From Spirochaetia bacterium (GTDB lineage: Bacteria; Spirochaetota; Spirochaetia; UBA9216), in contig CAXXYH010000003.1 in assembly GCA_963677925.2 (NCBI GenBank), positions 1,696,001 to 1,760,000 of the forward strand: 64,000 bases of DNA, written 5' to 3'. The position numbers and the translations under genes are program-made. Below the pieces are notes generated by a model, which worked only from the letters and a program-made list of their open reading frames with translations, was not told the DNA's origin and searched no databases. Below, one piece after another: positions 19,263 through 64,000 of this stretch (position 1 is its first letter; each line of letters starts with the position of its first letter).

Positions 19263-19336
<74 letters not shown>

Positions 19337-19364
19337 GTCTTTGTTTTTTGGCAATTTAAATAAC

Positions 19365-19437: not shown

Positions 19438-19524
19438 AAACTTTTTCAAATATATTGACCTATATTAGAAAAAGTGTAATAATGCGGAAACTTCCTGATG
19501 GAAGCCACGCTCCGCAGTAAAGCT

Positions 19525-19605
19525 GCGAGAGTGGTGAAATTGGCAGACACGCCAGACTTAGGATCTGGTGCCTTTGGCGTAAGGGTTCAAGTCCCTTCTC
19601 TCGTA
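19525..19605 (+). tRNA. tRNA-Leu (TAG)
   Basis: GCGAGAG/CTCTCGT acceptor, CCAGA-CTTAGGA-TCTGG arm, long variable arm. Confidence 0.95.
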
Positions 19606-19654
19606 TATCTTTTTTTAAAGATGTGCCCATGGGTACTTAGTTTCAGAACATCAA

Positions 19655-19726
19655 GCGGGAGTAGCTCAGCGGTAGAGCTCCACCTTGCCAAGGTGGATGT
19701 CGCGGGTTCAATTCCCGTCTCCCGCT
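19655..19726 (+). tRNA. tRNA-Gly (GCC)
   Basis: GCGGGAG/CTCCCGC acceptor, CCACC-TTGCCAA-GGTGG arm, U73. Confidence 0.95.
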
Positions 19727-30885: not shown

Positions 30886-30887
30886 TC

Positions 30888-32723
30888 TTATCCTTCCTGA
30901 ATCTCTTTTATATGGATTTTAATTTCGCTTCCGGATCCTGCAATATTATGAATATCAAAAACAAGCTGCTCATCATACAGCAGTTTTAATCGTATAAAGG
31001 TATTTAAAATACCCAGCTTGCTTGATTTTAGATATACGTTATCATTAAGCCAGTTACTGCTGTTATCAAAATGATATATCTCATCCTTTATTCTTTTAAG
31101 TTCACCTTCATCTATTCCTGTTCCATCATCGCTGATAACTATCTCCCAGCCGTCATCAGTCTGTCTTCCAAAAACTGAGATTTCTATAGCCCGGTCCAGA
31201 CCGTACATTCCGTGTTTAAAGCAATTTTCAACAAAGGGCTGCAGAGTCATCCTGGGCAGAAGTTTATTCTGAAGCTGATCCTCGATCACTATCTTATACT
31301 CCATCCTGTGTTCATAACGGTATTTAAGCAGGCCCAGGAATGAATCTATATTTTCTTTTTCTGCCCGCAATGTCACATAGTTTTCTGAAATATCCGATGT
31401 GTACTTCAATATCGTATTTAATTTACTGCAGATATCAGGAATTTTGCCATCACCGAGGTTCTTTGCCATTATTGATATCACCGATATAGTATTATGCAGG
31501 AAATGCGGATTCATCTGGGACTGCAGAAGTTTATAGTAGGCTTTCTCAATCTGCTGCTGAGTCTGGATTGTTTCATCCAATGAATTTTTCAGTTTAAGCG
31601 CCATCTTATCAAAGCTGCGGTTAAGAATAGCAATTTCACCATCGACATTAGAAAAGGCGTAGGCGCTCATATCCGGATTAATATTCTGATAATCAATATT
31701 CTCCACTTTTTTCTTGAGCTCCCGAAGCGGTGTATAGATATGAAGGGCTATTATATATGCTATAACAAAGGATATTGCTGTTCCGAATATTCCTATTATT
31801 ATTATCAGCCGTAGAATATTAAATATCGGCTCATTCAGGATAGTACGGGGAATCATGTAAAGAACAATCCAGTCGGGATATGAAGCAACTCGGCTTACGG
31901 CAACATAGCGGATACCTGACTTCTGCTCTATAAATTTTACTGCAGTATACTCTGACATCTTTTCGGCGTTTTTATAATCATTTATCAGCTTTTCATCACT
32001 ATTATCAGTTGACGACTGCCCTGAATATATAAAATTATCACTTCTATCCAGAATAAATATCCTGCCGGAATTAATAGGACTGATATTACAAATCTCAGCG
32101 ATGATGTTGTATTTTGCCTGCACTTCAATGATTCCAATAGGCCCATGGGAGCTTTGCACTACTCTTTGAAGTGAAAATATCTTTTCACCGGAGTCCTCTT
32201 CCCATTCATTATCATGAGGAGGGAGAACCCGGTATGAATAACCTGCTTCAAGCTTTATATCTCCGGGTTTCGGGCGGGAGAGCAGCTGTTTCCTGACCTC
32301 ACCTGAATCTGTATCAAACCTCTTGCTTGAAAAATACATATTACTGTCACTGAAGACATTAACCCTGTCTATATCCGGAAAAGGCTGAGAAATGGTAAAA
32401 ATATTGTCCGTAATCATGTTGTATGAACTTAAATACATCAGCATATTCACCGTCTCATAATTATATCCGCTTAGATACAGCAAAGACTGTCTAACATAAG
32501 TATTAGTCAGAACCCCAAATGAAATCTGATTCATTTCCTTGATTCGCAGGTTAAGCTGCTCTGAGATTAATGCAGTTACATTGTTCATATCCCTGATTTC
32601 ATTATTTTCTATATTCTGAGTCAGAATAATAAAGACAATTGTACAGATGCCGGTAATTAGAAAAGCTATCAGGATTGTGTAGAACATGTATATTCTGGTG
32701 AACAGACTTCTGAAAATCTTTAT
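30888..32723 (-). CDS. YesM/LytS-type sensor histidine kinase (start uncertain: ATA 32723 or ATG 32687)
   Basis: Two TM segments, HAMP, LQSQMNPHFLHN, LQPFVENCFKHG, ISDDGTG. Confidence 0.88.
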   Translation of the reverse strand: MKIFRSLFTRIYMFYTILIAFLITGICTIVFIILTQNIENNEIRDMNNVTALISEQLNLRIKEMNQISFGVLTNTYVRQSLLYLSGYNYETVNMLMYLSSYNMITDNIFTISQPFPDIDRVNVFSDSNMYFSSKRFDTDSGEVRKQLLSRPKPGDIKLEAGYSYRVLPPHDNEWEEDSGEKIFSLQRVVQSSHGPIGIIEVQAKYNIIAEICNISPINSGRIFILDRSDNFIYSGQSSTDNSDEKLINDYKNAEKMSEYTAVKFIEQKSGIRYVAVSRVASYPDWIVLYMIPRTILNEPIFNILRLIIIIGIFGTAISFVIAYIIALHIYTPLRELKKKVENIDYQNINPDMSAYAFSNVDGEIAILNRSFDKMALKLKNSLDETIQTQQQIEKAYYKLLQSQMNPHFLHNTISVISIMAKNLGDGKIPDICSKLNTILKYTSDISENYVTLRAEKENIDSFLGLLKYRYEHRMEYKIVIEDQLQNKLLPRMTLQPFVENCFKHGMYGLDRAIEISVFGRQTDDGWEIVISDDGTGIDEGELKRIKDEIYHFDNSSNWLNDNVYLKSSKLGILNTFIRLKLLYDEQLVFDIHNIAGSGSEIKIHIKEIQEG

Positions 32724-32917: not shown

Positions 32918-32962
32918 TCTGTCAAAACGGAGCTTCCGTTGAAACTTTATGGAGGATGTAAA

Positions 32963-34072
32963 ATGAAAAAAGAGAGGTTGTTTAGATTAGGCTATGTCTT
33001 ATTAGCAGTCATGCTGATAATCTCGGGTGCAGGGTGTAAATCCGATTCAGAAAAAACTGCACAGAGCAATGACGGTTCAAAAAATGCGGAAAAACCAATA
33101 GAACTGTCCTTTGCCGGACTGATGCCGGCAGCAAGCCCCTGGGAATCAAAAGTGATGGTTCCCTTGCTTGCAGAAATTGATAAAGAAACCAACGGCAGGG
33201 TAAAAATCAATACATATCCCGGCGGAACGCTGCTTGAAGGCGGAAAGATTTATGACGGTGTTGCCATCGGTGCAGCTGATATAGGTCATGAATCGCTTTC
33301 CTGGGTAAACGGCAGATTTCTGACGAGCGATATTCTAAAAAAATCAGGAGTTCCCTTTAAAAGCGGAGAGGCTGCCAGCCGAACCTTCAAGGAATTTGTA
33401 GAAAAACTCGATCCGAAGGAATTCCACGATGTAAAGGTCCTGATGCTTATATGCACCGGTCCCGGAAATATCCATACGGTTAAACCGGTATCTTCGCTGG
33501 AAGATCTGGCAGGCATGGAAATCCGCTGTATTGGTTCTGATGCCCCGTCACTTACTGCACTCGGAGCAAAGCCGGTTTCAATGTCACATCAGGATGGCTA
33601 TGAAGCTCTGCAGAAGGGCATTGTACAGGGAACCCTTGCCAGCAACGAAACTCTTCACACCTGGCATAATGCTGAAGTAACAAAGTACACGACTCTCACT
33701 CCATTCATGTATAACGGTCTTCAGGCTGTAGTAATGAACCTGGATACATGGAATTCTCTCCCGGCCGACATTCAGACTGGAATTGAAAATGCCTGCAACA
33801 AGATATGGGAAGATATTGTAATCCATTTTTACGATGAAGAAAGCGACAACGGTATGACATATGCAGTGGAAGAAACAGGACAGGAAGTGATAACACTGAC
33901 ACCTGAAGAAACTGAACGCTGGAAAGAAAAAATCGCCCACATTCTTGATCACTATGCTGAAGAACTGGACCAGAAAGGACTCCGTGGAGAAGAAGCAAAA
34001 GAGCTGCTTTTTGAACTCGGTGAAAAATACAATAAGGTTCATGACAATTATCTCGCAGAACTAGCCAAATAA
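32963..34072 (+). CDS. dctP: TRAP transporter solute-binding lipoprotein
   Basis: Lipobox GAGC, ETNGRVKINTYPGGTL, DLAGMEIR, YEALQKGIVQG; ATG after GGAGG. Confidence 0.9.
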   Translation: MKKERLFRLGYVLLAVMLIISGAGCKSDSEKTAQSNDGSKNAEKPIELSFAGLMPAASPWESKVMVPLLAEIDKETNGRVKINTYPGGTLLEGGKIYDGVAIGAADIGHESLSWVNGRFLTSDILKKSGVPFKSGEAASRTFKEFVEKLDPKEFHDVKVLMLICTGPGNIHTVKPVSSLEDLAGMEIRCIGSDAPSLTALGAKPVSMSHQDGYEALQKGIVQGTLASNETLHTWHNAEVTKYTTLTPFMYNGLQAVVMNLDTWNSLPADIQTGIENACNKIWEDIVIHFYDEESDNGMTYAVEETGQEVITLTPEETERWKEKIAHILDHYAEELDQKGLRGEEAKELLFELGEKYNKVHDNYLAELAK

Positions 34073-34092
34073 TTTTCTATCATTCTTACCCA

Positions 34093-34122
34093 ATTGCGTA
34101 CCTGAACTCTCAGGTACGCAAT
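34093..34122 (+). terminator. Intercistronic stem-loop after dctP (stabiliser or attenuator)
   Basis: Perfect 13-bp stem ATTGCGTACCTGA / TCAGGTACGCAAT, 4-nt loop, no T tract. Confidence 0.7.
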
Positions 34123-34143
34123 GATTCTTAAAAAGAGGAACAT

Positions 34144-34650
34144 ATGGATACCGCTATTCGATTTTTGAAAACATTTTCCAGAAAACTGGATTATCTGGCA
34201 GCTGCAATCCTGTTTTTGAACTGCCTTCTTGTAGTTGCCAATGTTATTACACGAAGCCCGGTGCTTGAAATGCCGATTTTCGGCGTATATGAAATTGTAT
34301 GTTATTTATCGCTGTTATCAATCAGCTTTGCACTTTCAAGATGTGCCTTTGAAGGAGGGCACACAAATCTGACATTCTTACTTGAAAAACTTTCAGAGAA
34401 GAAAGCAAAAATAATCGGAATCATAACAAATATTATTGTTTTGATTAATTTCATCCTGATAGCATGGAATATGGTTCTTTATACAATCGACCGGGTTGCA
34501 GTCGGAGATGTAAGCCCGGTAATGAGGATTCCCATTGTATATGTTATGGCATTTCTTTGCCTGGGTTTTGTCCTTCTTACAATCACTCCGCTGGTAAAAA
34601 TTGTGGAAAGCATAATGGATTTAAAATTGGAAGGAGAAAATAAGCAATGA
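34144..34650 (+). CDS. dctQ: TRAP transporter small permease
   Basis: 4 TM segments, NVITR, GVYEIV, GGH. Confidence 0.88.
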   Translation: MDTAIRFLKTFSRKLDYLAAAILFLNCLLVVANVITRSPVLEMPIFGVYEIVCYLSLLSISFALSRCAFEGGHTNLTFLLEKLSEKKAKIIGIITNIIVLINFILIAWNMVLYTIDRVAVGDVSPVMRIPIVYVMAFLCLGFVLLTITPLVKIVESIMDLKLEGENKQ

Positions 34651-35960
34651 GTGCAGCATTAGTAGGTTTATTAGGTCTAATTATTTTTATAATAGTGATG
34701 TTTCTTGGAGTCCCAGTCAGCTTCTCAATGCTGCTTACCGGATTCTGGGGACTGTCTTTTCTCCGTTCTCCCCAGGCAGCATTTAATATTATATCCAAAG
34801 ATATTTTCTCCAGTTTTTCATCATACTCACTTACCGTTGTCCCCATGTTTGTATTCATGGGCTTTGTTGCTTATTATTCCGGTATAGGTTCTGGTCTGTT
34901 TAGGCTTTCACATAAGGTTATAGGACACCGTAAAGGCGGCCTGGCACTGGCGGCTCAGCTGGCCTGTGCTTTATTCGGAGCAATATGCGGCTCACTTGCA
35001 GCGAGTGTGGCAACTATCGGAACTATCGCCTTCCCAGAAATGAAGAGGTATCACTACAAGGATGAATTATCGGCTTCCAGTATTGCAGCAGGTGCTTCGA
35101 TCGGCAGTCTCATTCCGCCCAGTGTTCTGTTTATAATCTACGGAATTGCAACTGAACAGTCTATCGGACGCCTTTTTGTAGCAGGTATACTGCCGGGAAT
35201 TCTTCTTACGGTTGCGAATATGCTGACCATCTATATCCTGTGCAGAAGAGACCCCTCACTTGGTCCGGCCGGAGAAAAAGCAAGCCGGAATGAAATAATA
35301 TCAACAATAAAAAAAGACGGATTACTTGAAGTTTTAGTGGTTTTCGTAGTTTCACTAGGCGGGCTGTTTATAGGCTGGTTTACTCCGACAGAGGCAGGAG
35401 CCGTCGGAGCTATTGCCCTGCTGGTTCTAACCCTGTTTGAAAAGAAAATGGATTTTAAGAAACTAAAACTCGCGCTTCTTGATACAACAAAATTAAGTGC
35501 AATGATTTTCATGCTTGTAGCCGCAGCAACAGTCTACGGAAGATTCTTTGCACTCACGCGAATCCCTTTCCAGCTTTCAACCTGGGTATCGGAGTTCAAT
35601 CTTCCAAATTTTGCGGTAATGGGGCTTATCGTTCTCATCTATCTGATTCTTGGATGTGTAATCGACGCACTGGCCTTGATTCTTCTCACTGTTCCCATTT
35701 TCTTTCCGCTTGTTGTAGGAACACTGCATTATGACCCAATATGGTTTGGTGTAATAATCCTGCTTGTAACAGTAATGGGAAGCATAACTCCGCCTGTCGG
35801 TTTAAATATTTATGTAATGAAGAGTGTAGCCCCTTCGGTAAAAATTGAAACCCTGTTCAAGGGTGTCTGGCCGTTTGTAGGTGCACTGCTGGTATGTATT
35901 GCTTTGATAATTATATTCCCGGCAATAGCCACCTGGCTTCCCGGGCTGATTTTCGGTTAA
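34647..35960 (+). CDS. dctM: TRAP transporter large permease
   Basis: GVPVSFSM, VPMFVFMG, LIPPS, LFVAGILPG, FTPTEAGA, ITPPVGLN. Confidence 0.93.
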   Translation: MSAALVGLLGLIIFIIVMFLGVPVSFSMLLTGFWGLSFLRSPQAAFNIISKDIFSSFSSYSLTVVPMFVFMGFVAYYSGIGSGLFRLSHKVIGHRKGGLALAAQLACALFGAICGSLAASVATIGTIAFPEMKRYHYKDELSASSIAAGASIGSLIPPSVLFIIYGIATEQSIGRLFVAGILPGILLTVANMLTIYILCRRDPSLGPAGEKASRNEIISTIKKDGLLEVLVVFVVSLGGLFIGWFTPTEAGAVGAIALLVLTLFEKKMDFKKLKLALLDTTKLSAMIFMLVAAATVYGRFFALTRIPFQLSTWVSEFNLPNFAVMGLIVLIYLILGCVIDALALILLTVPIFFPLVVGTLHYDPIWFGVIILLVTVMGSITPPVGLNIYVMKSVAPSVKIETLFKGVWPFVGALLVCIALIIIFPAIATWLPGLIFG

Positions 35961-35970
35961 GGAGCAAATA

Positions 35971-36717
35971 ATGAACGATAAAATAGATTTATCAATATTC
36001 AAGGAATTTAATTTTAAATACAGTCCCGTTGGTGTCAAATTCCTTTTAACTAAACCTGTCGGAGTTGAACACATAGAAAAAAAGCTGGCATTCTGCGAGA
36101 TGCTCAAAGAGGCTCAGGAATACGACAGACCGTTTTATACAACTGCAGAAAACCATGAATGCAAAGCAGGCCCTATTCTTCTGGGAATGGAAGAGGGAGA
36201 TCCTATATTTGAAAGCGGCCAGGTTGGGCCGCGGCTCGGAGTATATGAAGATCCGAGAGCGAACAGGAAGCTGTATACCAACATGTCAAAATTTGAAAAA
36301 AACAGTGTTAAGTATGTTTTATATTCAAAACTCGATACCCTTAATTTCAACCCTGATCTGCTCATATTAACTGCCGATGCAGATCAGGCAGAGATTATAA
36401 TGAGAGCATATACCTACCGCTCCGGCGCAGCATGGAATGCAAAGGGAACAACCGTAGTAGGATGTGCATTTTTATACCTGTATCCGTATTTCAGCGGAGA
36501 GCTGAACATGATGGTCACGGGTCTGCATCATGGAATGAAAGCAAGAAAACTGTTCCCGCCGGGATGGCTCTTTTTGTCGATTCCCTACAATGCAATACCT
36601 GAAGTCACAGAAAACCTGAAAACCATAGAATGGGATCTTCCTCAATACTCCTGGGGAAAGGAAAACCATCTCAAACGAATGCAGGAAATCGTCGCTGAAG
36701 TTAAAGAGGAGCTTTAA
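35971..36717 (+). CDS. DUF169-family protein
   Basis: PVGVKF, AFCEM, HECKAGPILLG, PDLLI pattern. Confidence 0.7.
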   Translation: MNDKIDLSIFKEFNFKYSPVGVKFLLTKPVGVEHIEKKLAFCEMLKEAQEYDRPFYTTAENHECKAGPILLGMEEGDPIFESGQVGPRLGVYEDPRANRKLYTNMSKFEKNSVKYVLYSKLDTLNFNPDLLILTADADQAEIIMRAYTYRSGAAWNAKGTTVVGCAFLYLYPYFSGELNMMVTGLHHGMKARKLFPPGWLFLSIPYNAIPEVTENLKTIEWDLPQYSWGKENHLKRMQEIVAEVKEEL

Positions 36718-39094: not shown

Positions 39095-40888
39095 ATGAGT
39101 AAAATACCGGAAAGACATGAAGTAGATGATAAAGACAAATGGGATCTTTCAGGTTTATATAAAACAGAAGAAGACTGGGAGGCTGATCTAAAGGCTTTTC
39201 AGAAAATGATACCCGGAATAGAAAAATTCAGGGGGACCCTGGGGGACTCCGCTGAAAAGCTCAAGGAATGCCTTGATTATATGAATGGATTTGAGCTGAT
39301 GGAAGAAAGACTCGGATCCTATGCCCATCTGAGACTCAACGAGGATGAAGGAAACAGCAGCGGACAGGAGCGGTTTTCAAGATTCATGTCTCTTGCGGCA
39401 CAGGCCTCAGCTGCTGCCAGTTATCAGACCCCGGAGATACAGGCGGTTTCCGAAGATAAAATGAAATCCTTTATGGCATCCCCCCTGCTCTCGGAATATT
39501 CTATTATGCTGAACAAGATCCTCCGGTACAGACCTCATATCCTGTCCGAGAAGGAAGAGAAGCTGATAGCCATGCAGGCAGAGGCGAATCAGACTGCTTC
39601 AAGGACATTTTCATCACTGACCAATGTCGATATGTCTTTTGGAAATATAAAGATTGAAGAGGGAGAAATTCCCCTCACACAGTCAACATTCGGCTCCTTC
39701 CTGATAAACCCCGACAGGGAAATCAGAAAGCAGGCATATTTTCAGTTCTACTCCGGCTTTGAATCTCATAAAAACACACTTTCAACTCTCTATGCAGGAA
39801 ATGTTCATCTGGACATATACAAATCACGCATACGCAATTACAGTTCCTCAAGAGCCGCAGCCCTCTTCCCGGACAAGGTTGAAGAAACCGTTTATGACAA
39901 CCTTCTGAGCACCATAGGCGAAAATCTCCCGGCCCTTCACCGGTATTACGATCTGCGGCGCCGTGCGCTTGGCCTTGAGAAGCTCAGCCACTATGACGTC
40001 TATGTTCCGCTTGTAAAGGATATAAAGGTAAAGCATAGCTATGATGAAGCTGTTGAAGTAATAATCAAAGCATTGGAACCGATGGGTGAAGAGTACTGCA
40101 GTACGCTCGAGAACGGACTCAGGAGCGGGTGGGTTGATCGCTATGAGAACAAGGGAAAACGCTCCGGAGCCTTTTCCGCAGGGTCCTACATCGGCGATCC
40201 ATATATCCTGATGAACTTCAAGGAAGACGTTCTTCGAGATGTGTTCACACTTGCCCATGAGGGCGGACACTCGATGCATTCCTGGTACAGTGTCAGAAAC
40301 AACCCATTCCAGAATTACAGCTATACAATATTTGAGGCTGAAGTAGCATCTACCTTCAACGAACAGCTGCTTGCAAAATATCTTTTCGAAAGAGCGGAGT
40401 CCGATGAAATGAAGGCCTACCTGATTGGAAAACAGGTTGATGATATTATTGCAACAATATTCAGACAGACCATGTTTGCCGAATTTGAACATCTTGCCCA
40501 TAAGATGGTTGAAGAAGGCCAGCCTTTAAGTGTTGAATCGGTAAGAAAACTCTACAGAAGCCTGCTGGAGAAATACTTCGGGCCTGATGTTGAACTGTTC
40601 GCAGAAAGTGATCTTGAAGGACTCAGAATCCCCCATTTCTACAGGGCTTTCTATGTTTACAAGTATGCTACCGGTCTTGCTGCCGCCATAGCGCTGTCAA
40701 CGAAGGTTCTTAACGGTACTGAACTTGATCGTGACCAGTACCTCTCATTTCTCAAATCAGGAGGGTCGAAATATCCACTTGAATCTCTTGCTGCGGCAGG
40801 AGTGGATATGAGCAGTCCTGAACCGGTACAGGCGGCAATGAAGCGCTTCGGAGAGCTTTGCAGTCAACTTGAGGGGCTGATCAAATGA
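39095..40888 (+). CDS. pepF: Oligoendopeptidase F (M3B)
   Basis: KWDLS, GKRSGAFS, TLAHEGGHSMH, AEVASTFNE, RIPHFY, YVYKYATG. Confidence 0.95.
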   Translation: MSKIPERHEVDDKDKWDLSGLYKTEEDWEADLKAFQKMIPGIEKFRGTLGDSAEKLKECLDYMNGFELMEERLGSYAHLRLNEDEGNSSGQERFSRFMSLAAQASAAASYQTPEIQAVSEDKMKSFMASPLLSEYSIMLNKILRYRPHILSEKEEKLIAMQAEANQTASRTFSSLTNVDMSFGNIKIEEGEIPLTQSTFGSFLINPDREIRKQAYFQFYSGFESHKNTLSTLYAGNVHLDIYKSRIRNYSSSRAAALFPDKVEETVYDNLLSTIGENLPALHRYYDLRRRALGLEKLSHYDVYVPLVKDIKVKHSYDEAVEVIIKALEPMGEEYCSTLENGLRSGWVDRYENKGKRSGAFSAGSYIGDPYILMNFKEDVLRDVFTLAHEGGHSMHSWYSVRNNPFQNYSYTIFEAEVASTFNEQLLAKYLFERAESDEMKAYLIGKQVDDIIATIFRQTMFAEFEHLAHKMVEEGQPLSVESVRKLYRSLLEKYFGPDVELFAESDLEGLRIPHFYRAFYVYKYATGLAAAIALSTKVLNGTELDRDQYLSFLKSGGSKYPLESLAAAGVDMSSPEPVQAAMKRFGELCSQLEGLIK

Positions 40889-41430
40889 ACTGCCTCAACT
40901 GCAGCTCCAAGGCATGCAAATCCGACGGACGCGACTGCAACGGAGCCCACGACAGCATAGTTAAAGAATATAAAAAAGACGGCATTCCCGAGTTTTACGA
41001 GAATGCCGATAAACTCGTTGCCGGAGGAAGAGCCGGCAGCCTCTCAAGACTTGATGAAGTAATTGAATTTTCAAATCTTCAGGGGTGGAAGAAAATAGCA
41101 CTGGCCTACTGTTTTTCCATGGAAAAGGAAGCTCTGAAACTTTCAGGGATACTGAAGGAGAAGGGGCTGAAACCTAGTTCTTTCCGCTGTACTGTTAACG
41201 GAATTAAGGAATCTGAGATAAGCGATAATCTTAAAGGCGGCGTCAACTGCAATCCTATAGGACAGGCTGAGGCGATTAACCAGAGCGATGCGGATCTTGT
41301 AATCGAGATGGGACTCTGTCTTGGCCATGATATCCTGTTTCATCAGTATCTGAAAAAACCGCTTACAGTTCTTGCTGTTAAGGACAGGCTATATAAGCAT
41401 AATCCGCTTCAGGCATTAGTTGAAGACTAA
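40885..41430 (+). CDS. DUF1847-family putative metal-binding protein
   Basis: CLNC..C..C, SRLDE, CNPIGQA, GLCLGHD, VLAVKDR, HNP. Confidence 0.82.
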   Translation: MNCLNCSSKACKSDGRDCNGAHDSIVKEYKKDGIPEFYENADKLVAGGRAGSLSRLDEVIEFSNLQGWKKIALAYCFSMEKEALKLSGILKEKGLKPSSFRCTVNGIKESEISDNLKGGVNCNPIGQAEAINQSDADLVIEMGLCLGHDILFHQYLKKPLTVLAVKDRLYKHNPLQALVED

Positions 41431-43808: not shown

Positions 43809-43902
43809 AAATATCTCAAATAGCCCGGAACAGGTCTTATTTGAGATATTTCCTCCTCTTTTTTCTCCTGGCCCCTGCCGGCAACAGCAGGGGCTTTTTT
43901 TA
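43809..43902. terminator. Two hairpins between convergent msmX and RACo genes
   Basis: 14-bp inverted repeat AAATATCTCAAATA (43809-43851) and GCCCCTGC/GCAGGGGC plus T run (43871-43902). Confidence 0.7.
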
Positions 43903-45726
43903 CAGCTTGTTGAAATACATAGCGTTCATGTATTCCATTTGAAACTGGGCACTTGTTGAGAGTTCAATGTAATCAACATGCCTTGCGGCATCAGACATAT
44001 CAGCAATGACATCAGCAGATAGAGCTGCCATTACCGCACCCTTACCTGCAGTGTTTCCGGCTGCTGCTATCTTTGTTTCAAGGGCTGCCGGAACAAGTCC
44101 GATAACCGCGGCATTATGCCTGTCTAGGGCAGCTCCGAAACCGCCGGCCAGATGCACACATTCAACATCATCAACTGTTTTTCCGGTTTCATGAAGCAGC
44201 GTTGCAATTCCGGCAGCTATTGCAGCTTTGGCCATCTGAATTTCCCTTATGTCCTTCTGAGTGAGCGTTATTCCGCCGGAAACTTTCAGTTCGGGACCGT
44301 CATCTTTTATAATGAGCGGTCCGGAAGTATCTGCCTCCTCGGTCATAATCCTTCCGGTCTCATCAATGTATCCCTGCTGCAGGAAAACAGAAACCGCATC
44401 AACAATTCCTGAACCGCAGATTCCTGCCGGAGTATCTCCGCCAATCACTTCAAAGGAAATATCCTTTTCAGTGGCGGCATATACCCTGTTGATTGCGCCG
44501 GGAACTCCGCCCATTCCGCATGAGATATTAGCGCCCTCAAGAGCCGGGCCGGCTGCAGTTGAACATGCCGTCATACCGCTTTTATTGCCGAGAACAATCT
44601 CACCATTTGTACCTATATCGATTAAAAGAGAGAGTTTATCAGTTCTATGCATTCCGGTGGCAATGATGCCTGCTGTGATGTCTGCACCTACATAGGAGGC
44701 AATAGAGGGAAGCAGTGCTATTGTACATCCCTCGTGAAGACTCAGCCCCAGCTCCGGCGCTGAAACAGCAAGCAGAGAGGTATCAACCGGAATAAAGGGA
44801 GCGGCAGCTATACCTGCGGGATCCAGACCGGCGAAAAGATGCATCATGGTAGTGTTGCCCGCTATTGTAACAAGATCGATTGCAGAAGATTCAATTCCGG
44901 CTTTTAAACAAAGCTTATCGACCATGGTTGATATCTGATTTGTTATTTTCTGCTGCAGAATATCAAGGTTTCCTGATTCCTGCATTGTGAACTCGATTCT
45001 GGAGATAACATCCCCTCCGAAACCCTTCTGAGAATTCAGTGAGGAGACAAAGTCGATCACCTGACCGCGCTCTTCTCCGCTGATGCAGACAAGATATGAA
45101 ACTACTGTAGTGGTTCCGATATCAACTGCAACAGCGTATGAAACCTCAGCAGTATTTTTATCTGACACTGAAACAATTTTACCGAAACAGGTTTTTACCG
45201 AGATTTCATACTCGTATTTTTTCAGAAGTGCAGGCAGGCACCGTATCATCCACAATGGAATATCCGAACTTTCAGGAAGGCCTGATTTAATTCTTTCAAA
45301 GTCGGAACGCTGATCCTCGATTGAAGGCTTATCAAGATTCAGACTGATTAGAGAAACAGGCGCCTCCGAACCTATCAGATCCGGATTAAAAGCCTGTCCG
45401 TCAAAACCTGTCAGAATAGATGCTGATTTCCCTGCGGAAGAAACTGTGATATCAATATCACTCTCCGGGAAAATGCGGCAGGCCAGTCTTGTTCCAGCGC
45501 TTATTTCACTTTCGGTGAGGAATTTGTTTTCTACAGAATCAGGCTTATACTGCCTGGTAAGTTCAGGTCTTACTAGTTTTACCCTGCACTTTCCGCAGGT
45601 ACCCTTGCCACCGCAGGGTGCATCATAGCCTTCAATACCGGCCCTGTTTACTGCATCAAGAAGACTTTCACCTTTTTTGATTTCCGCGGCCTTAATTTCA
45701 CCGTCAGTATGTATCTTAATTTTCAT
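43900..45726 (-). CDS. Reductive activator of corrinoid proteins (RACo / ASKHA ATPase with [2Fe-2S])
   Basis: CGGKGTCGKC, RLAC, DIGTTT, GGDVISRI, DIGTNGE, AAGPALEG, GICGSG, LAGGFG. Confidence 0.92.
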   Translation of the reverse strand: MKIKIHTDGEIKAAEIKKGESLLDAVNRAGIEGYDAPCGGKGTCGKCRVKLVRPELTRQYKPDSVENKFLTESEISAGTRLACRIFPESDIDITVSSAGKSASILTGFDGQAFNPDLIGSEAPVSLISLNLDKPSIEDQRSDFERIKSGLPESSDIPLWMIRCLPALLKKYEYEISVKTCFGKIVSVSDKNTAEVSYAVAVDIGTTTVVSYLVCISGEERGQVIDFVSSLNSQKGFGGDVISRIEFTMQESGNLDILQQKITNQISTMVDKLCLKAGIESSAIDLVTIAGNTTMMHLFAGLDPAGIAAAPFIPVDTSLLAVSAPELGLSLHEGCTIALLPSIASYVGADITAGIIATGMHRTDKLSLLIDIGTNGEIVLGNKSGMTACSTAAGPALEGANISCGMGGVPGAINRVYAATEKDISFEVIGGDTPAGICGSGIVDAVSVFLQQGYIDETGRIMTEEADTSGPLIIKDDGPELKVSGGITLTQKDIREIQMAKAAIAAGIATLLHETGKTVDDVECVHLAGGFGAALDRHNAAVIGLVPAALETKIAAAGNTAGKGAVMAALSADVIADMSDAARHVDYIELSTSAQFQMEYMNAMYFNKL

Positions 45727-46664
45727 ATTTTTATTTCCGCTCCGCTTAGTTCTTCCGCAGATTTTTTAATAAGTTCTAAAACAGTATCATCTGCAGGAGA
45801 AATGATTACAAGCCCTTCACGCTCTGAACCGGAGACATGCCTGCAGTACTGCCCGTCTGAGGCCACGGAGATATCTGCCTGCAGATATCCGTCTTCACTT
45901 TTAAGCCAGCCTTTGATCCTGTAAACGCTGCTGCGGATGCTGTCGATGAAGCGGTTCAAATCCTTTTCATCTGCAGTACTTGAACAGGTAAGCAGTACGG
46001 GAACCGGTCTGCCCTGCCTTCCCCAGCCCGCAAATCGTCTTTCAAACGGTTTAACAGTCTCAATCTCGGGCATCTGCTCAAGCAATGAAGAATCGGCTTC
46101 TCCAAAACTTGTTCGAATAATATCGGCCTCGGGGTTAACGGTAAGAACATCCGACTCGCACAGGCTTGTTTCCATTTTACCTGCCAGGTCTGTTTTATTT
46201 AGAATCACCTTGTTGCTGTAGGCTATCTGTTCATTCACAGCCAGCACAGCCTGAGAGAGTCTGCGGTATGTTGAAGCATCAACAAGGCTAATCATTCCGT
46301 GATATTTAATACGGCCGTTTGAGACTGCTTTAGCTTCATTAATAATTTCAAGAAGCGGTGAAGGCTTAGCCAGTCCGGAAGTTTCTACAAGCAGGTAATC
46401 GATATCAAACCGGGAGAAACTGCCCACGGCCGAAACAAAGGAGCCGGCAAGACAGGAACAGAAGATCTGCCCGTTATTCAGCTCAAGGATACTGTCTTTA
46501 TCCTGAGCACCCAGAAGCTTCGAATCTACTCCGATGCTGCCGAAGTCGTTGACAATAATGCCGAACTTTACGTCCGGCATTATTTTGAAGATGTTATTTA
46601 AAAATGTGGTTTTACCTGATCCCAGAAATCCTGAGATCAGTATTAATTTTATGCTGTCACTCAA
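45723..46664 (-). CDS. CobW/COG0523-like G3E GTPase
   Basis: GFLGSGKTT, VNDFG, NGQIFCSC, ETSGLA, NKTD, RIKG. Confidence 0.88.
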   Translation of the reverse strand: MSDSIKLILISGFLGSGKTTFLNNIFKIMPDVKFGIIVNDFGSIGVDSKLLGAQDKDSILELNNGQIFCSCLAGSFVSAVGSFSRFDIDYLLVETSGLAKPSPLLEIINEAKAVSNGRIKYHGMISLVDASTYRRLSQAVLAVNEQIAYSNKVILNKTDLAGKMETSLCESDVLTVNPEADIIRTSFGEADSSLLEQMPEIETVKPFERRFAGWGRQGRPVPVLLTCSSTADEKDLNRFIDSIRSSVYRIKGWLKSEDGYLQADISVASDGQYCRHVSGSEREGLVIISPADDTVLELIKKSAEELSGAEIKI

Positions 46665-48010
46665 AGGTACTTTTCAACCTCAGCTATAAATTCATTTCTG
46701 CTTGGAATTATAGATGAGTATTTAAGTTCGCCATTGATGTAGATACTGGGAAGCTGCTGTACACCCATTGCTTTGCATCGGGCAATGTTCTGAGGCTCTG
46801 TATATTTATACTCTATCATGTCTACCTTTTCTCCGTAATGTGACTTGATATCATCAGCGGAGGCCTTCATATATGTACAGGCTGCGCAGGTAATTGAATC
46901 GAGTGTGAAAACTTCGATAAAGGGTCTTTCAAGATTTGGATAATCGGGAAGTTCGCCTTCAAATTCTATTTCACTGCCCTCATAATTTGCAACCATTTCA
47001 CGGATCTGTTCAGTCTGATGCACAGCCTGCTCTATTCCGATTGTATTCTCGATTGGGATATCGTATGGCATATCGCAGCCGGGAGCGACAATCAGGAGGT
47101 CCTGGTTATCAAGACTGTCTATTAAATCGATGGTAGTTTTCATGTTGTCCTGCTGTGTTCCGAATAGCATAACGGAAGTAAGCGGAATATTACCGCCGAT
47201 AACAACATTATACTTATCAGTAACTTTTTTTGCTGCGGCAAGATTAACATTCTCATCCACCGAAATACTGTCAGGAGCAGTCTTGCACATGGGTTCGATA
47301 TTTGCCGTAGCGTTTCCGCATACAAAGAAGGATGAAAACGCACCCTTGCTTCTTATATGTTCAAAAACCTCAGAAAACGGGCCGTCCATGAACTCAGCGA
47401 AGTGATCAGGTGAAATCTGGGAGATAAGAGGGTCGACAACCGCAATAATGTCCATTCCTGCATCGGCATAGAAATCAGTCATTGCGTTTGCAACTTTCGT
47501 TGTATATTCCATGAGTGCTTTTACATGCTCCGGATTCATTACCATATCCATAAAAATATTGGTTCCCCGAAGATGAGACGCCAGAGTAAAGGGGCCTGTA
47601 ATAAGACCGTAAAGTGCGGTATCAGCTCCTACTTTTTCCTTCATGGCTTTCATGGCTTTTACAGCCATAGGGATACGTCCGTCCTCAGCCTTGGGCATAG
47701 TATCGGGAATTTCTTCGGTATCGGCAAGCGGATGAGATGCCACAGTAGGCGGAGCATCCTCAGACCATACCAGATTACATCCGAGTATTTCAGCTTCAAT
47801 CTGAAGATCAAACATTACCGGCTGTCCGTCCGGCTTGTAGATTTTATTAACCTCAAGAAGAGATTCAATCAGTTTATCAGCATCAGTAGAAACTTCACGT
47901 GCTGTGTACCCTTTTAGTTTACCTGCATGTACACCGGCAAAGGGGACCCATGGCACCTCGCCTGTTTTTTCCTTTCTAAGTACTGCCAGTAATTTTTCTT
48001 TTCCAGTCAT
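46661..48010 (-). CDS. UroD/MtaA-CmuA-family methyltransferase with a C-terminal thioredoxin-like CxxC domain
   Basis: EAEILGC, GPFTLASHLRG, VVDP, FFVCG, GGNI, APGCDMP; C-terminus IEVFTLDSITCAACTYM...GVQQLPSIYINGE. Confidence 0.85.
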   Translation of the reverse strand: MTGKEKLLAVLRKEKTGEVPWVPFAGVHAGKLKGYTAREVSTDADKLIESLLEVNKIYKPDGQPVMFDLQIEAEILGCNLVWSEDAPPTVASHPLADTEEIPDTMPKAEDGRIPMAVKAMKAMKEKVGADTALYGLITGPFTLASHLRGTNIFMDMVMNPEHVKALMEYTTKVANAMTDFYADAGMDIIAVVDPLISQISPDHFAEFMDGPFSEVFEHIRSKGAFSSFFVCGNATANIEPMCKTAPDSISVDENVNLAAAKKVTDKYNVVIGGNIPLTSVMLFGTQQDNMKTTIDLIDSLDNQDLLIVAPGCDMPYDIPIENTIGIEQAVHQTEQIREMVANYEGSEIEFEGELPDYPNLERPFIEVFTLDSITCAACTYMKASADDIKSHYGEKVDMIEYKYTEPQNIARCKAMGVQQLPSIYINGELKYSSIIPSRNEFIAEVEKYL

Positions 48011-48124: not shown

Positions 48125-48163
48125 AAAAAAAAAGAGGATATCCAAAGCTTGTTGGATATCCTC
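48125..48163 (-). terminator. Intrinsic terminator after the corrinoid protein gene
   Basis: 12-bp stem GAGGATATCCAA / TTGGATATCCTC followed by a T run on the minus strand. Confidence 0.85.
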
Positions 48164-48207
48164 CGTATTTTTATAAAAGAAATTTGCCAATGCAGGCTGT
48201 TTTTGGA

Positions 48208-48843
48208 TTATTTTGTACAAACCTCAAGAGCTTTTTCTGAAGCTGTAGCTGCATCTGCTGTATAGATATCAGCACCGATACTTTCACAGAATTTCTCTGT
48301 TACCGGAGCTCCGCCGACCATAATGGTAACCTTGTCTCTGATACCTGCGTCTACAGCGGCCTTAACTACGTTTTCCATCTGAGTCATTGTTGTAGTAAGA
48401 AGAGCTGAACATGCAATAATATTTGCATTTTCATTCTGTGCGGCTTCAATGAATTTCTCAGCCGATACATCAGCTCCGAGATCCACTACAGTTAGACCCT
48501 TGCCTTCAAACATAATCTTCACAAGGTTTTTACCGATGTCATGAAGGTCACCCTTTACTGTTCCGATAACAACCTTTCCGATTTCTTCGACATCATCGCC
48601 GACCATTGCGGGCTTAAGAACTTCTAGTCCGAAATTCATTGCTCTTGCTGCAATAAGTACTTCAGGTACAAAAACTTCATTGTTTTTGAATTTTACTCCT
48701 ACAATATTCATCGCGGAAAGAAGTCCCTTTTCTAGGATTTCCTTGGGAGCGATGCCCTCTGCAAGAGCGTCTGCACAAAGCTGCTTAACCTCATCAGCCT
48801 TGCCTTTCTGCATCAGTTCTGAAATTTTCTCAAAATCTGCCAT
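48208..48843 (-). CDS. Methyltransferase cognate corrinoid (B12-binding) protein
   Basis: FVPEVLIAARAM cap domain, GTVKGDLHDIGKNLV (DxHxxG), SALLTTT, VGGAP. Confidence 0.95.
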   Translation of the reverse strand: MADFEKISELMQKGKADEVKQLCADALAEGIAPKEILEKGLLSAMNIVGVKFKNNEVFVPEVLIAARAMNFGLEVLKPAMVGDDVEEIGKVVIGTVKGDLHDIGKNLVKIMFEGKGLTVVDLGADVSAEKFIEAAQNENANIIACSALLTTTMTQMENVVKAAVDAGIRDKVTIMVGGAPVTEKFCESIGADIYTADAATASEKALEVCTK

Positions 48844-61058: not shown

Positions 61059-62786
61059 TCAGTTCAAAGGTTTTCTGTCTGTGTAGCTTGTGTGAAGCAA
61101 ATGGTGGGATTTTTCACCTAACGGCTTTATAAGATATTCCGAATACAATTTGTGGATATCCGGATTCTCGTGTGATTTCCTAAGTGCCATCTGGCCGTCT
61201 ACACGGTAGAGCGCCTTAATACGCTCCTCCCGCTTTGCATTGGTTGTGCCGTATGGCTGTCCGCCTCCTCCGATGCATCCGCCGGGGCAGCACATTACTT
61301 CTATGAAAGAATAATCTGAATCACCGGCTTTTATGGATTCCATGATTTTCTTAGCATGGGAAAGTCCGTGGGCCACTGCCACATTAACCTTCTGACCGTT
61401 AAGGTCTACCGAAGCCTCCTTGACGCCTTCCATACCGCGGACAACATCAAAATCAAGCTTATCAAGCTTCTTTTCGGTTACAACTTCATAAACAGTCCGG
61501 AGGGCGGCTTCCATTACGCCCCCAGTTGCACCGAAGATTGCGGCAGCTCCTGTAGACATTCCAAGCGGCGAGTCGTATTCGCTTAAAGGAATGGAATCAA
61601 AATCAATCCCCTGGGAACGCAGCATCCTGCCGAGTTCCCTTGTTGTAAGGGCAACATCAACATCCTGATATCCGCTGTCGTTCATCTCGGGTCTCTGAGC
61701 CTCATACTTCTTTGCTGTACAGGGCATAATTGAAACAACAAACATCTTTTCAGGCGGTATGCCGACCTTCTCTGCATAATATGTCTTTGCTATAGCTCCG
61801 AACATCTGCTGAGGCGACTTGCATGAAGACACATGGGGAAGAAGTTCGGGGTAATTGAGTTCTATAAAATTAATCCACCCGGGACTGCAGGAAGTAAGCA
61901 TTGGAAGTACTCCGCCGTTTGTTATACGGTGCAGGAGTTCATGTCCTTCTTCCATAATGGTCAGATCAGCCGAAAAATCGGTATCAAAGACCTTATCAAA
62001 ACCGAGGTTCCTGAGGGCTCCGACAAGTTTACCGGTACTGATGGAACCTGCCGGAAGTCCGAACTCCTCTGCGATGGAAACTCTGATAGAAGGAGCGGTC
62101 TGGACTACTACGTGGAGGTCCGGATCGTCGATAGCATCCCAGACCTTCTGAGTTTCATCTTTTTCAAAGATCGCGCCTACCGGGCAGGCAAGGACACACT
62201 GACCGCAGAGGACACAGGAAACCTCGGATAACTGCTTTCCGTATTCCGGAGACACACAGATATCTGTACTTCTGTTATGGCTGTAGAGAACTCCTACTTC
62301 CTGAACATGATGGCAGACCTCAGCACATCTTCCACATTTAATGCACTTGTTCATGTCACGTACAAGTGATGTAGTTGAAAGATCGACAGGCAGAAGTTTT
62401 TCACTCTTCTCGGCCTGAATATTGGTAATGCCGAGCCGGTCAGTCAGCTGCCTGAGTTCACAGTTGCCGTTTCTGACACAGGTTGGACATTCCTGCGGAT
62501 GATCCGCCAGAATAAGCTCTACAACCGTCTTAACCGTTTCTCTTACACGCGGAGAATTCGTTGTGATACTCATTCCTTCTTCAACCGGAGTTGAGCAGGA
62601 AGCTGCCAGGTTTTTACGTCCTTCGACTTCAACAACACAAACCCTGCAGTTGCCCTTAACCTTCTGGTCGGGATGATGACAGAGGCTTGGCAGAGTTATA
62701 CCATTCTGCCTGGCCGCTTCCATTACTGTTATTCCTTCAGGGACAGCAACCCTGTTTCCGTTTAATTTAATTTCCAGTTTTTTCAT
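61059..62786 (-). CDS. hydA: [FeFe] hydrogenase catalytic subunit (group A, HydA/HndD type)
   Basis: [2Fe-2S], His-ligated and 2x[4Fe-4S] motifs; TSCSPGW, MPCTAKKYE, EVMCCPGGCIGGGG; RKSHEN..LLHT. Confidence 0.95.
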   Translation of the reverse strand: MKKLEIKLNGNRVAVPEGITVMEAARQNGITLPSLCHHPDQKVKGNCRVCVVEVEGRKNLAASCSTPVEEGMSITTNSPRVRETVKTVVELILADHPQECPTCVRNGNCELRQLTDRLGITNIQAEKSEKLLPVDLSTTSLVRDMNKCIKCGRCAEVCHHVQEVGVLYSHNRSTDICVSPEYGKQLSEVSCVLCGQCVLACPVGAIFEKDETQKVWDAIDDPDLHVVVQTAPSIRVSIAEEFGLPAGSISTGKLVGALRNLGFDKVFDTDFSADLTIMEEGHELLHRITNGGVLPMLTSCSPGWINFIELNYPELLPHVSSCKSPQQMFGAIAKTYYAEKVGIPPEKMFVVSIMPCTAKKYEAQRPEMNDSGYQDVDVALTTRELGRMLRSQGIDFDSIPLSEYDSPLGMSTGAAAIFGATGGVMEAALRTVYEVVTEKKLDKLDFDVVRGMEGVKEASVDLNGQKVNVAVAHGLSHAKKIMESIKAGDSDYSFIEVMCCPGGCIGGGGQPYGTTNAKREERIKALYRVDGQMALRKSHENPDIHKLYSEYLIKPLGEKSHHLLHTSYTDRKPLN

Positions 62787-64000
62787 TATGCAGTCACCCT
62801 TCTCTCTTCTTCTGAAATATAATCAGCGGCCGCATCAAGATATTCCTGTCTGTAATATTCCAGTGAAGATTTAAGACTGTTTCCAGCTGCCTGTCCAAGA
62901 CCGCAGAATGAAGCCTCCTGCATTGCACGGGTATAGCGTTCCAGTTTGTCAATATCTTCAACAAAAGCTTCTCCGCGCTCGAGTCTCTCAAGGATGATAT
63001 CAGCCTGCCTTAACCCCTCTCTGCACGGCGTGCATTTACCGCAGCTTTCATGAAGGAAAAAGCGGACTCTGTTATTAACATTTTCCAGAATAGATCTCGT
63101 ATCATCAAGAACAAACACAGCTCCCGAACCGATAGTAATATCTTCTTCTGCACAGGTTCCGTATTCAAGTGGAATATCAAGCTTTTCAGGCGGAACAAGA
63201 ATGCCGGAAGCTCCTCCGATATTGACTGCTTTGATAGTTCTGCCTGACTTGGGACCTCCGCCGTATTCATGGATGATGTCAGAAATCTTTGTACCGAATG
63301 GTACTTCATACAATCCCCTGTTGTTTACATCGCCCGAAAGGGAAATCAGTTTTGTGCCCGGACTGTCACTTGTGCCGATACTTCTGTACCATTGTGCACC
63401 GTTCGACATAATCGGCGACAGATTGGAAAGTGTTTCCACGTTGTTTATCAGGGTCGGATGCCCCCAGAGTCCGGAAGTTGTAGGATAAGGCGGTTTAAGC
63501 CGCGGACGACCCTTTTTGCCCTCTATTGAGTTAAGCAGAGCTGTTTCCTCTCCGCAGAGGTAGCTGCCTGCACCGCTGAAAATTTCAAGTTTAAGCGAGA
63601 ATCCGCTGCCAAGAATGTTCTCACCAAGCAGCCCGTTACGCTCAGCCTCGTTTATCGCATCCTGTATTCTTGCTCTGGCTTCCGGGTATTCATGTCTGAC
63701 ATATATGTAACCCTGTTCGGTTCCGGCAATATATGCAGCAATTGTAATTCCCTCAAGAAGCTGGAAAGGCAGATGTGTCATTATAAAGCGATCCTTGAAT
63801 GTTCCGGGTTCGCCTTCATCCGCGTTGCAGATAATATATCTGAACTTATCTGCAGTGTTTCTCACCATGTTCAGTTTAACACCGGTTGGAAAAGCAGCAC
63901 CTCCTCTGCCTCTCAAACCTGATTCCCTGATAACATCCAGTGATTTGGCAGGTCCCTTCTTAACCGCCGTCTTAAGACCGTTATACCCGCCCCGTGATTT
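62786..64000 (-). CDS. hydB: NuoF-like NADH/FMN-binding hydrogenase subunit (5' end outside the window)
   Basis: Frame open to the window edge; SGLRGRGGAAFPTG, NADEGEPGTFKDR, YLCGEETAL, ESCGKCTPCREG, FCGLG. Confidence 0.92.
   Translation of the reverse strand, partial: KSRGGYNGLKTAVKKGPAKSLDVIRESGLRGRGGAAFPTGVKLNMVRNTADKFRYIICNADEGEPGTFKDRFIMTHLPFQLLEGITIAAYIAGTEQGYIYVRHEYPEARARIQDAINEAERNGLLGENILGSGFSLKLEIFSGAGSYLCGEETALLNSIEGKKGRPRLKPPYPTTSGLWGHPTLINNVETLSNLSPIMSNGAQWYRSIGTSDSPGTKLISLSGDVNNRGLYEVPFGTKISDIIHEYGGGPKSGRTIKAVNIGGASGILVPPEKLDIPLEYGTCAEEDITIGSGAVFVLDDTRSILENVNNRVRFFLHESCGKCTPCREGLRQADIILERLERGEAFVEDIDKLERYTRAMQEASFCGLGQAAGNSLKSSLEYYRQEYLDAAADYISEEERRVTA

Follow-up and report, generated by a model that had tools for sequence, protein, structure and literature searches.

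What kind of methyl transfer would suit a methyltransferase barrel that has lost the histidine of its zinc site and carries a thioredoxin fold at its C-terminal end? The question is raised by one gene in a 64,000-nucleotide stretch of DNA from a Spirochaetia bacterium (contig CAXXYH010000003.1, positions 1,696,001 to 1,760,000; hereafter the window), whose product joins a barrel of the uroporphyrinogen decarboxylase (UroD) type to a thioredoxin-like domain. The barrel is MtaA-like, and the UroD-thioredoxin fusion is a conserved family feature that is widespread in anaerobes. The setting of the gene is best explained if it encodes the sole methyltransferase in a compact and inducible cassette for corrinoid-dependent methyl transfer. 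As to the reaction, the reading that we favour, at a probability of roughly 0.4, is that of a corrinoid-dependent methyltransferase acting on a soft nucleophile, sulfur or selenium, and using the appended domain as a redox dithiol in cis.

An MtaA-like barrel and a thioredoxin fold

The Pfam URO-D model (PF01208) matches residues 3-331 with 183.1 bits against a gathering score of 23.9 (E 9.4e-54), and this score, together with the UroD-type TIM-barrel fold, places the protein in the UroD superfamily. Its closest solved match by sequence, found with phmmer, is MtaA of Methanosarcina mazei (4ay7; E 1.5e-23, ~23% identity). The same structure is the best solved fold match in a Foldseek search with an AlphaFold2 model of the 449-residue enzyme, which was computed from 77 aligned sequences and has a predicted local distance difference test score (pLDDT) of 93.9 and a predicted TM-score (pTM) of 0.89; the TM-score to 4ay7 is 0.89 (target-normalised) with a root-mean-square deviation of 2.2, and UROD structures score 0.74-0.82. 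That search returned the fused UroD-thioredoxin architecture in no solved structure. The NCBIfam models nearest to the barrel are those of MtaA, CmuA and MtbA, each scoring far below its cut-off (MtaA_Meth, 142.8 against 400; mtaA_cmuA, 142.8 against 235.4; MtbA, 126.1 against 600), and the HemE equivalog TIGR01464 is further off (67.5 bits against 302.95). Most homologues are named uroporphyrinogen decarboxylase in databases. For the thioredoxin-fused family this name is wrong, being contradicted by these model scores and by a gene context of corrinoid methyl transfer, not haem synthesis.

In the phmmer alignment, the MtaA segment 'vlHiCgn' is paired with 'ffVCgn' and 'laPGC' with 'vaPGC', so that Phe229 occupies the position of the MtaA histidine and Cys312 that of the distal cysteine. 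Of the H-x-C...C zinc triad of MtaA and MtbA, the enzyme thus retains Cys231 and Cys312 and has Phe229 for the histidine. The fourth MtaA ligand, which we take to be a glutamate within a V-E-E stretch, falls where the enzyme has its D252-E253 pair. A GGAGGA element is located 5 nt 5' of the ATG of the gene.

The linker that follows the barrel is predicted to be ordered, since the block has pLDDT values of 78-93. Beyond it, residues 364-448 are modelled in the order beta-alpha-beta-alpha-beta-beta-alpha. Within the whole protein, Pfam Thioredoxin_3 (PF13192) matches residues 372-441 with 23.1 bits, slightly below its cut-off of 24.8; when the last 98 residues are scanned alone the score is 26.1 bits, above that cut-off, and the equivalent domain of 13/13 homologues also matches. 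A profile of the C-terminal domain finds two archaeal thioredoxins of solved structure, 1nho (E 7.4e-8) and 1fo5 (E 1e-5), and aligns the CAAC motif with their CPYC/CPHC active site and Pro421 with their cis-Pro. In accordance with a thioredoxin, helix 1 begins with the CxxC and the proline precedes strand 3 in model and alignment. Like these archaeal proteins (MJ0307/Mt0807), the domain combines the fold order with CxxC and cis-Pro; unlike them, it is fused to an enzyme and carries CAAC or CAPC, whereas they are free-standing. The C-terminal domain is accordingly assigned, by profile and model, to the thioredoxin fold, with redox-active thioredoxins of archaea as its nearest solved relatives, and is a candidate for redox activity.

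Look-alikes of the domain in the ESM Atlas belong to generic Thioredoxin_3 and glutaredoxin clusters only. Among shorter proteins, 230/231 candidates matched the domain, and the best 120 of these 230 are all at least 57% identical to it and resemble fragments of the fused family; this search was word-based, a method to which distant stand-alone relatives are invisible. An earlier note on the window had described both halves of the protein, an MtaA-like barrel without the zinc histidine but with the distal cysteine kept, and a fused CxxC domain of thioredoxin fold with a cis-Pro-like motif. The alignment to 4ay7 bears out the former, and the Thioredoxin_3 match, the alignment to 1nho and 1fo5 and the modelled fold order confirm the latter.

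Conservation of the fusion and loss of the histidine

In a word-indexed protein search, 5014 of the 7999 candidates scored had E <= 0.001, and the best 120 of these 5014, at 448-479 residues, have 61-99% identity with a query coverage of at least 98%. Twelve residues of the enzyme (F228, F229, V230, C231, C242, C312, D313, C375, A376, A377, C378 and P421) are invariant in 26/26 full-length homologues of 61-82% identity, as is P355-D356-Y357 of the linker. Invariance at this depth means that the six features of interest, F229, C231, C312, C375, C378 and P421, are not there by chance. A genome scan with two sequence patterns and one genome per species matched at least 590 stretches, at least 578 of which encode relatives, and the best 80 loci were kept. 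F-F-V-C, E253, C312, CAAC and P421 are present in all 78 full-length genome copies (the window and 77/80 loci; at the other three loci the filter for open reading frames returned no gene, and they were left out). One of the two patterns contained F-F-V-C, whose constancy in the fetched loci was therefore partly imposed by the scan itself; neither pattern contained CAAC, C312 or P421.

By record title, the 80 loci belong to Bacillota (31), Spirochaetota (25), Chloroflexota (14), Desulfobacteraceae (3), Bacteroidota (2), Victivallaceae (1), Synergistaceae (1) and Ilyobacter (1), with two unlabelled. The full-length fusion is thus found in at least 80 species-level genomes of at least seven phyla, the hosts named in the titles being bacteria, and the fused proteins remain ~60% identical even between phyla. 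The cultured species among the hits include Marispirochaeta aestuarii, Sphaerochaeta halotolerans, Caldicoprobacter oshimai, Ilyobacter polytropus, Wukongibacter baidiensis and Crassaminicella profunda.

When all proteins of at least 300 residues in the collected set are counted, phenylalanine at the histidine position, both barrel cysteines and the CxxC occur together in 126/127 proteins with a single thioredoxin domain and in 117/119 proteins of at least 500 residues; the other two of the latter have His-x-Cys and a different architecture. With the proline included, 243/244 thioredoxin-fused relatives have the full set. The earlier note had staked its proposals beforehand on conservation of the CxxC among fusion homologues, and that expectation has held in the same 243 of 244. 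The motif reads CAAC in 123/126 single-thioredoxin proteins and CAPC in the other 3, and CAPC in 117/117 members of a 539-residue family with a double thioredoxin. This sister family (P0127 and P0390-P0507), which came to light when distant fused relatives served as queries in a further search, and some of whose records are labelled Prolixibacteraceae, Draconibacterium or Bacteroidota, has the F-F-V-C/C312 barrel and a CAPC thioredoxin domain; judging from the alignment of one member, P0127, its second thioredoxin-like domain lacks the CxxC. The sole exception among the 244 is the divergent P0154 (455 residues, 29% identity, a one-member cluster), from which the four cysteines are missing together: it has L-A-T-T for F-F-V-C, R for C312, and S and N for the cysteines of the CxxC. 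The protein could be a paralogue in decay, and the joint loss, a single case, hints that the four cysteines act as one unit.

Loss of the histidine extends beyond the fusion, since F/L-x-C...C is also what ten unfused proteins of 300-429 residues have. F229 is present in 243/243 fused relatives and histidine in 40/40 members of the His-x-Cys clade, a group defined by that residue. We built a maximum-likelihood tree of the barrel from 73 rows, with 10/126 single-thioredoxin and 10/117 double-thioredoxin proteins sampled, all other complete rows kept, and fragments with more than 40 gaps dropped. It splits, with support 99/97, into a 37-row clade (35 without the histidine, 2 with it) and a 36-row group (33 with it). 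Support for each of the two fused families is good (97/86 and 98/88), and they are not sisters; unfused F-x-C rows stand between them on a weakly supported backbone, and the tree is compatible with either one or two fusion events. Since both families nest within a wider histidine-less clade, the loss appears older or wider than the fusion, and the CxxC is not required to account for it. The co-variation of histidine loss and fusion, for which the earlier note had proposed a test, therefore stands in one direction, in that every thioredoxin-fused protein lacks the histidine, and fails in the other, given the ten unfused proteins with the same pattern.

Other residues of the barrel are candidate replacements for the lost ligand, as judged from their distribution: Glu253 (243/243 fused proteins against 6/40 His-x-Cys relatives), His28 (242/243 against 8/40) and His146 (243/243 against 10/40). 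D252 is shared more broadly, by 243/243 fused proteins, 8/10 unfused histidine-less rows and 36/40 His-x-Cys relatives, the other four of which have Glu; C231 and C312 are invariant in 77/77 rows of an alignment that includes distant unfused relatives. W21, Q70, W82, Q198, N237 and N254 are also specific to the histidine-less clade. Mean-field direct coupling analysis (DCA) of 310 unique fused sequences (effective number ~110) gave plausible top intradomain pairs, between adjacent barrel strands and between the CxxC loop and the cis-Pro loop. Among the top ten interdomain pairs, four lie on the catalytic face (background 12%) and five on the active surface of the thioredoxin domain (background 23%), with raw covariation that is weak or phylogenetic; in the pairs 309-431, 195-435 and 34-429, residue counts are almost independent or the differences are fixed by subfamily.

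The corrinoid cassette and its known relatives

In the window, the gene lies in a cassette of five genes that share one strand (Table 1). The TTG start of the GTPase gene overlaps the methyltransferase stop (TTGA), and the gene for the corrinoid reductive activase in turn overlaps the GTPase gene (ATGA). Across loci, the GTPase gene is mostly immediately 3' of the methyltransferase gene, and the pair is the most conserved feature of the neighbourhood; all neighbour counts over the 80 loci are lower bounds, because many loci end at contig ends. The GTPase keeps its CxC in 98% of 62 sequences, with Leu following C69-x-C71, where the usual COG0523 motif is CxCC, and its last 130 residues have no Pfam match to the CobW C-terminal domain. 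His101 of the corrinoid protein is present in 50/50 sequences. Between the corrinoid-protein and methyltransferase genes, a consensus scan found a hairpin with a T run, possibly a partial terminator; it may be an internal attenuator that yields more corrinoid protein than enzyme.

The window has neither another methyltransferase nor a folate-binding protein or dedicated transporter within ~15 kb. Of the 80 loci, 11 contain a second UroD paralogue (12 genes): 11/12 keep the histidine and have one or both ligand cysteines changed to Asp, His, Asn or Gln, or align only in part, and 1/12 has the complete His-Cys-Cys. Optional cassette genes, often directly after the GTPase gene, encode a 226-residue protein with a weak match to the MetH activation domain (12/80 loci; e.g. 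L008:1143-1823), a DUF2284 'predicted metal-binding protein' (12/80; e.g. L079:2562-3116) and a BioB/PylB-like radical S-adenosylmethionine (SAM) protein (7/80; e.g. L027:9602-10585), for which corrinoid reactivation or cofactor maturation are candidate roles. Four loci (L079:3295-4623, with relatives in L048, L071 and L072) have, adjoining the corrinoid-protein gene, a gene for a 442-residue protein that matches no Pfam or NCBIfam family and leaves a trace URO-D match (E 0.037), possibly a divergent substrate methyltransferase.

The methanogen methylcobamide:coenzyme M methyltransferases MtaA, MtbA and MtsA (4ay7/4ay8) have in common with this enzyme the UroD TIM barrel, the ligand cysteine pair and the acidic residue, and a cognate corrinoid protein and activase are encoded alongside, as here. 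The present enzyme differs in its Phe229, its bacterial hosts, its fixed E253, H28 and H146, and an extra 110 residues of linker and thioredoxin domain, and at such low identity it lies far under the NCBIfam equivalog cut-offs. A second point of comparison is the mlp gene clusters of type 1, which, in the available text of Kountz and Balskus (PMC10418091), contain two to three MtaA-like UroD proteins with His-Cys-Cys, a corrinoid protein, an activase and no folate methyltransferase. Methyl-sulfur and methyl-selenium metabolism is argued for them there, one Mlp2 slowly methylates selenide, and exceptions to His-Cys-Cys are allowed for 'several Mlps1' only. The window cassette shares with them a corrinoid protein combined with a Ram/RACE activase and no folate methyltransferase, as well as strictly anaerobic hosts and the proposed sulfur or selenium methyl chemistry; it has one UroD gene where those clusters need at least Mlp2 and Mlp3, and a Phe-Cys-Cys sphere in place of His-Cys-Cys. 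A word search of the available text of that paper found no mention of a thioredoxin fusion or a COG0523 partner.

The GTPase has its own precedent. COG0523 subfamily 13 genes lie beside mtaA, mtaB, mtaC and ramM in Methanosarcina and Clostridium botulinum, and the neighbours of this subfamily are zinc-dependent corrinoid methyltransferases (Haas et al. 2009, PMC2770081, available portions). The window cassette likewise places its GTPase gene beside corrinoid methyltransferase genes, but the GTPase has CxC, not CxCC, and its partner is histidine-less and fused to a thioredoxin. CdmB and MtvB, UroD-superfamily proteins without the canonical zinc site (PMC13222342, as far as available), belong to the substrate:corrinoid methyltransferases, have aromatic cavities and lack a conserved cysteine pair, whereas the fused family keeps both cysteines. 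Taken as a whole, the enzyme falls outside the MtaA/MtbA equivalogs and the type 1 mlp clusters as defined, yet most likely works like them. We found no description of a UroD-thioredoxin fusion in the full-text literature outside subscription journals and bioRxiv supplements.

Elsewhere in the window, Rfam models at gathering thresholds found only five tRNAs, whose genes are clustered within ~570 bases, and no B12 riboswitch. An [FeFe]-hydrogenase gene adjoins that of a NuoF-like flavoprotein, a layout of the electron-bifurcating type that fits a fermentative anaerobe. The remaining loci recorded are a TRAP transporter with a histidine kinase and an AraC-type response regulator upstream of it, and a DUF1847 gene (Table 1).

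Table 1. Coordinates of the fused gene, its cassette and other features in the window
Feature	Position	Strand	Basis, detail or occurrence
Fused enzyme, whole open reading frame	46661..48010	(-)	449 aa, ATG start; UroD/MtaA-like barrel, ordered linker, thioredoxin-fold domain
Barrel domain, residues 1-339	46994..48010	(-)	Pfam URO-D, fold match to MtaA
F229-V230-C231, where MtaA has the H-x-C zinc motif	47318..47326	(-)	4ay7 alignment, translation check
D252-E253 acidic pair	47252..47257	(-)	aligned with V-E-E of MtaA
Cys312 (APGCD), distal zinc-ligand Cys of MtaA-type enzymes	47075..47077	(-)	4ay7 alignment, conservation
Linker, residues 340-363	46922..46993	(-)	invariant P355-D356-Y357 and L360
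Thioredoxin-fold domain, residues 364-449	46664..46921	(-)	secondary-structure order, profile matches, Pfam Thioredoxin_3
C375-A-A-C378 (TCAAC = residues 374-378)	46877..46888	(-)	conservation, translation check
Pro421 in LPS motif, aligned to thioredoxin cis-Pro	46748..46750	(-)	profile alignment
Regulator, PocR sensor domain and AraC-type helix-turn-helix	49091..50395	(-)	45/80 loci
Corrinoid protein, B12-binding_2 cap and B12-binding domain, DxHxxG His101	48208..48843	(-)	48/80 loci
13-bp hairpin followed by nine-T run	48133..48164	(-)	consensus scan only
COG0523/CobW-type G3E GTPase, C69-x-C71	45723..46664	(-)	Pfam cobW E 9.5e-39; 60/80 loci
RACo-type ATP-dependent corrinoid reductive activase, 2Fe-2S ferredoxin and ASKHA domains	43900..45726	(-)	37/80 loci
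Five tRNA genes	19161-19726	(+)	
Histidine kinase and AraC-type response regulator	29380-32687	(-)	upstream of the TRAP transporter
TRAP transporter (DctP, DctQ, DctM), then DUF169 protein	32939-36717	(+)	
DUF1847 protein	40885-41430	(+)	directly after oligoendopeptidase F gene
[FeFe]-hydrogenase large subunit and NuoF-like flavoprotein	61059-63916	(-)	N-terminal 2Fe-2S/4Fe-4S module on the large subunit

Possible chemistry of the fused enzyme

If the enzyme acts on a soft nucleophile, as we favour, the methylated corrinoid protein would dock on the catalytic face of the barrel, as MtaC does on MtaA. A thiolate-rich metal site, comprising Cys231, Cys312 and an acidic or histidine residue and loaded by the neighbouring COG0523 GTPase, would bind and activate a thiol, sulfide or selenol, and the methyl group would move between cobalt and the sulfur or selenium atom. 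Because no other methyltransferase is present, the enzyme may cover both half-reactions, as does MtsA, a single enzyme for the two. The CxxC would either reduce a disulfide, diselenide or polysulfide at the active site and so supply the substrate (for example, methanethiol from dimethyl disulfide) or hold the two catalytic cysteines in the reduced state. A metal centre is still expected because of the linked GTPase with its conserved CxC, translationally coupled in the window. A soft substrate is expected because, in the available text of PMC10418091, UroD S-methyltransferases keep the cysteine ligands, whereas O-methyltransferases carry carboxylates or non-ligands instead.

Several observations weigh against transfer to a soft nucleophile at a metal site. 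With the histidine ligand lost, and with zinc-free UroD methyltransferases such as CdmB on record (2026 paper, PMC13222342, available portions), the site could be metal-free. In the ten unfused relatives F/L-x-C...C persists with no thioredoxin domain attached, so that the barrel chemistry would have no strict need of one. The 80 neighbourhoods contain no conserved thioredoxin reductase, a pyridine-nucleotide-disulfide oxidoreductase-like gene being present in only 4/80, and no conserved genes of sulfur or selenium metabolism or transporters. In addition, the six clade-specific residues W21, Q70, W82, Q198, N237 and N254 could equally shape a pocket for tetrahydrofolate or another acceptor.

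In a composite metal site, the first suggestion of the earlier note for the dithiol, one or both CxxC cysteines would join Cys231 and Cys312 on the metal and replace the lost histidine, resembling the Cys3 zinc sites of MetH and BHMT or the Cys4 site of Ada. In keeping with such a site, none of the fused proteins keeps the histidine (243/243 Phe), P0154 lost its four cysteines jointly, the pTM of 0.89 and the ordered, conserved linker suggest fixed packing of the two domains, and the interdomain DCA pairs on the two active surfaces offer a weak lead. We nevertheless consider it rather unlikely: ten unfused relatives have the identical barrel pattern, the tree puts the histidine loss before or beyond the fusion, E253, H28 and H146 are clade-specific alternative ligands, the nearest solved relatives of the appended domain are redox thioredoxins and not metal-binding domains, and the raw covariation under the DCA lead is weak or phylogenetic. 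A broader version, in which all four cysteines (231, 312, 375 and 378) form one composite active site without a described counterpart among corrinoid methyltransferases, either a GTPase-assembled cysteine-rich metal centre or a redox-coupled site, seems improbable to us. Under it, the BioB-like radical SAM and DUF2284 proteins would help to assemble the metal centre in some genomes, or else methyl transfer to or from cobalt would be tied to a two-electron dithiol/disulfide step. The close pairing of methyltransferase and GTPase could also mean that the CxxC domain serves only for metal hand-off, as the place where the GTPase docks and ligands are exchanged, zinc or another metal being delivered through it to the barrel, with no role of the domain in methyl transfer. 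The pair is found in 60/80 loci against 48 for the corrinoid protein, several loci (L026, L046, L056 and L057 among them) have these two genes without any further cassette gene, both proteins carry invariant cysteine pairs, and the genes are translationally coupled; but COG0523 genes also lie beside ordinary His-x-Cys MtaA/MtaB systems without a thioredoxin (PMC2770081, available portions), and we hold hand-off alone to be unlikely.

It is also doubtful, to much the same degree, that the site is metal-free or serves another acceptor, for example as a methylcorrinoid:tetrahydrofolate methyltransferase for methyltransferases encoded elsewhere, or with a haloalkane, the thioredoxin domain being regulatory or structural. 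The lost histidine, the clade-specific tryptophan, glutamine and asparagine residues named above, a corrinoid protein most like the glycine-betaine-type MtgC (213 bits, below the cut-off of 370) and the lack of a second methyltransferase in the cassette, as a shared module would have it, all agree with this, as do the zinc-free UroD enzymes (PMC13222342) and the ability of a PocR sensor to bind small hydrocarbons such as dichloromethane (Formimonas paper, PMC9768040), both as described in the portions available. For a thiol-independent enzyme, however, the invariant ligand cysteine pair, D252 and the CxxC would be superfluous; the metallochaperone-type GTPase is closely linked, and a UroD-family folate methyltransferase is treated as undiscovered in the available text of PMC10418091. 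MtqA of E. limosum, a methylcorrinoid:tetrahydrofolate enzyme, would be a precedent if it belonged to the UroD family, to which the portions available of PMC8604678, PMC9303578 and PMC12155760 do not assign it. The earlier note had further suggested that the dithiol is a tethered methyl acceptor or handles a metalloid substrate. The CxxC thiol would then be methylated, or the four cysteines would cycle As(III), selenium or another metalloid in the manner of the disulfide cascade mechanism of ArsM. Four invariant cysteines would suit this, as would a weak ArsD-family similarity in 2/13 thioredoxin domains (E 0.0045) and weak NCBIfam matches to a selenoprotein-type thioredoxin (E 2.5e-4) and a CobW-related selenoprotein (E 1.2e-11), both far below their cut-offs. 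A stoichiometric protein acceptor is, however, at odds with a cassette whose corrinoid protein and ATP-dependent reductive activase are made for repeated turnover; the metalloid variant finds no support in the context, ars, mer and sel genes being absent from those recurrent clusters of neighbours in the 80 loci that were run through Pfam or NCBIfam; and selenocysteine replaces none of the four cysteines, the 81 tblastn alignments across these loci being free of in-frame stops. We therefore regard both forms as very improbable.

UroD-superfamily corrinoid methyltransferases are increasingly found far beyond the methanogens. Bringing together a thiolate metal site that has putatively been rebuilt, a GTPase of the metallochaperone type and an in-built thioredoxin, the fused family raises the question whether corrinoid methyl transfer can be coupled to thiol/disulfide chemistry, and it possibly points to a route in anaerobic sulfur and selenium methyl cycling. 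Even as a mere aid to repair or metallation, the thioredoxin domain would represent an accessory principle new to zinc-thiolate methyltransferases. If, on the other hand, the redox-coupled form of the composite active site were true, anaerobes could use or make methylated sulfur, selenium and metalloid species from oxidised precursors without another methyltransferase.

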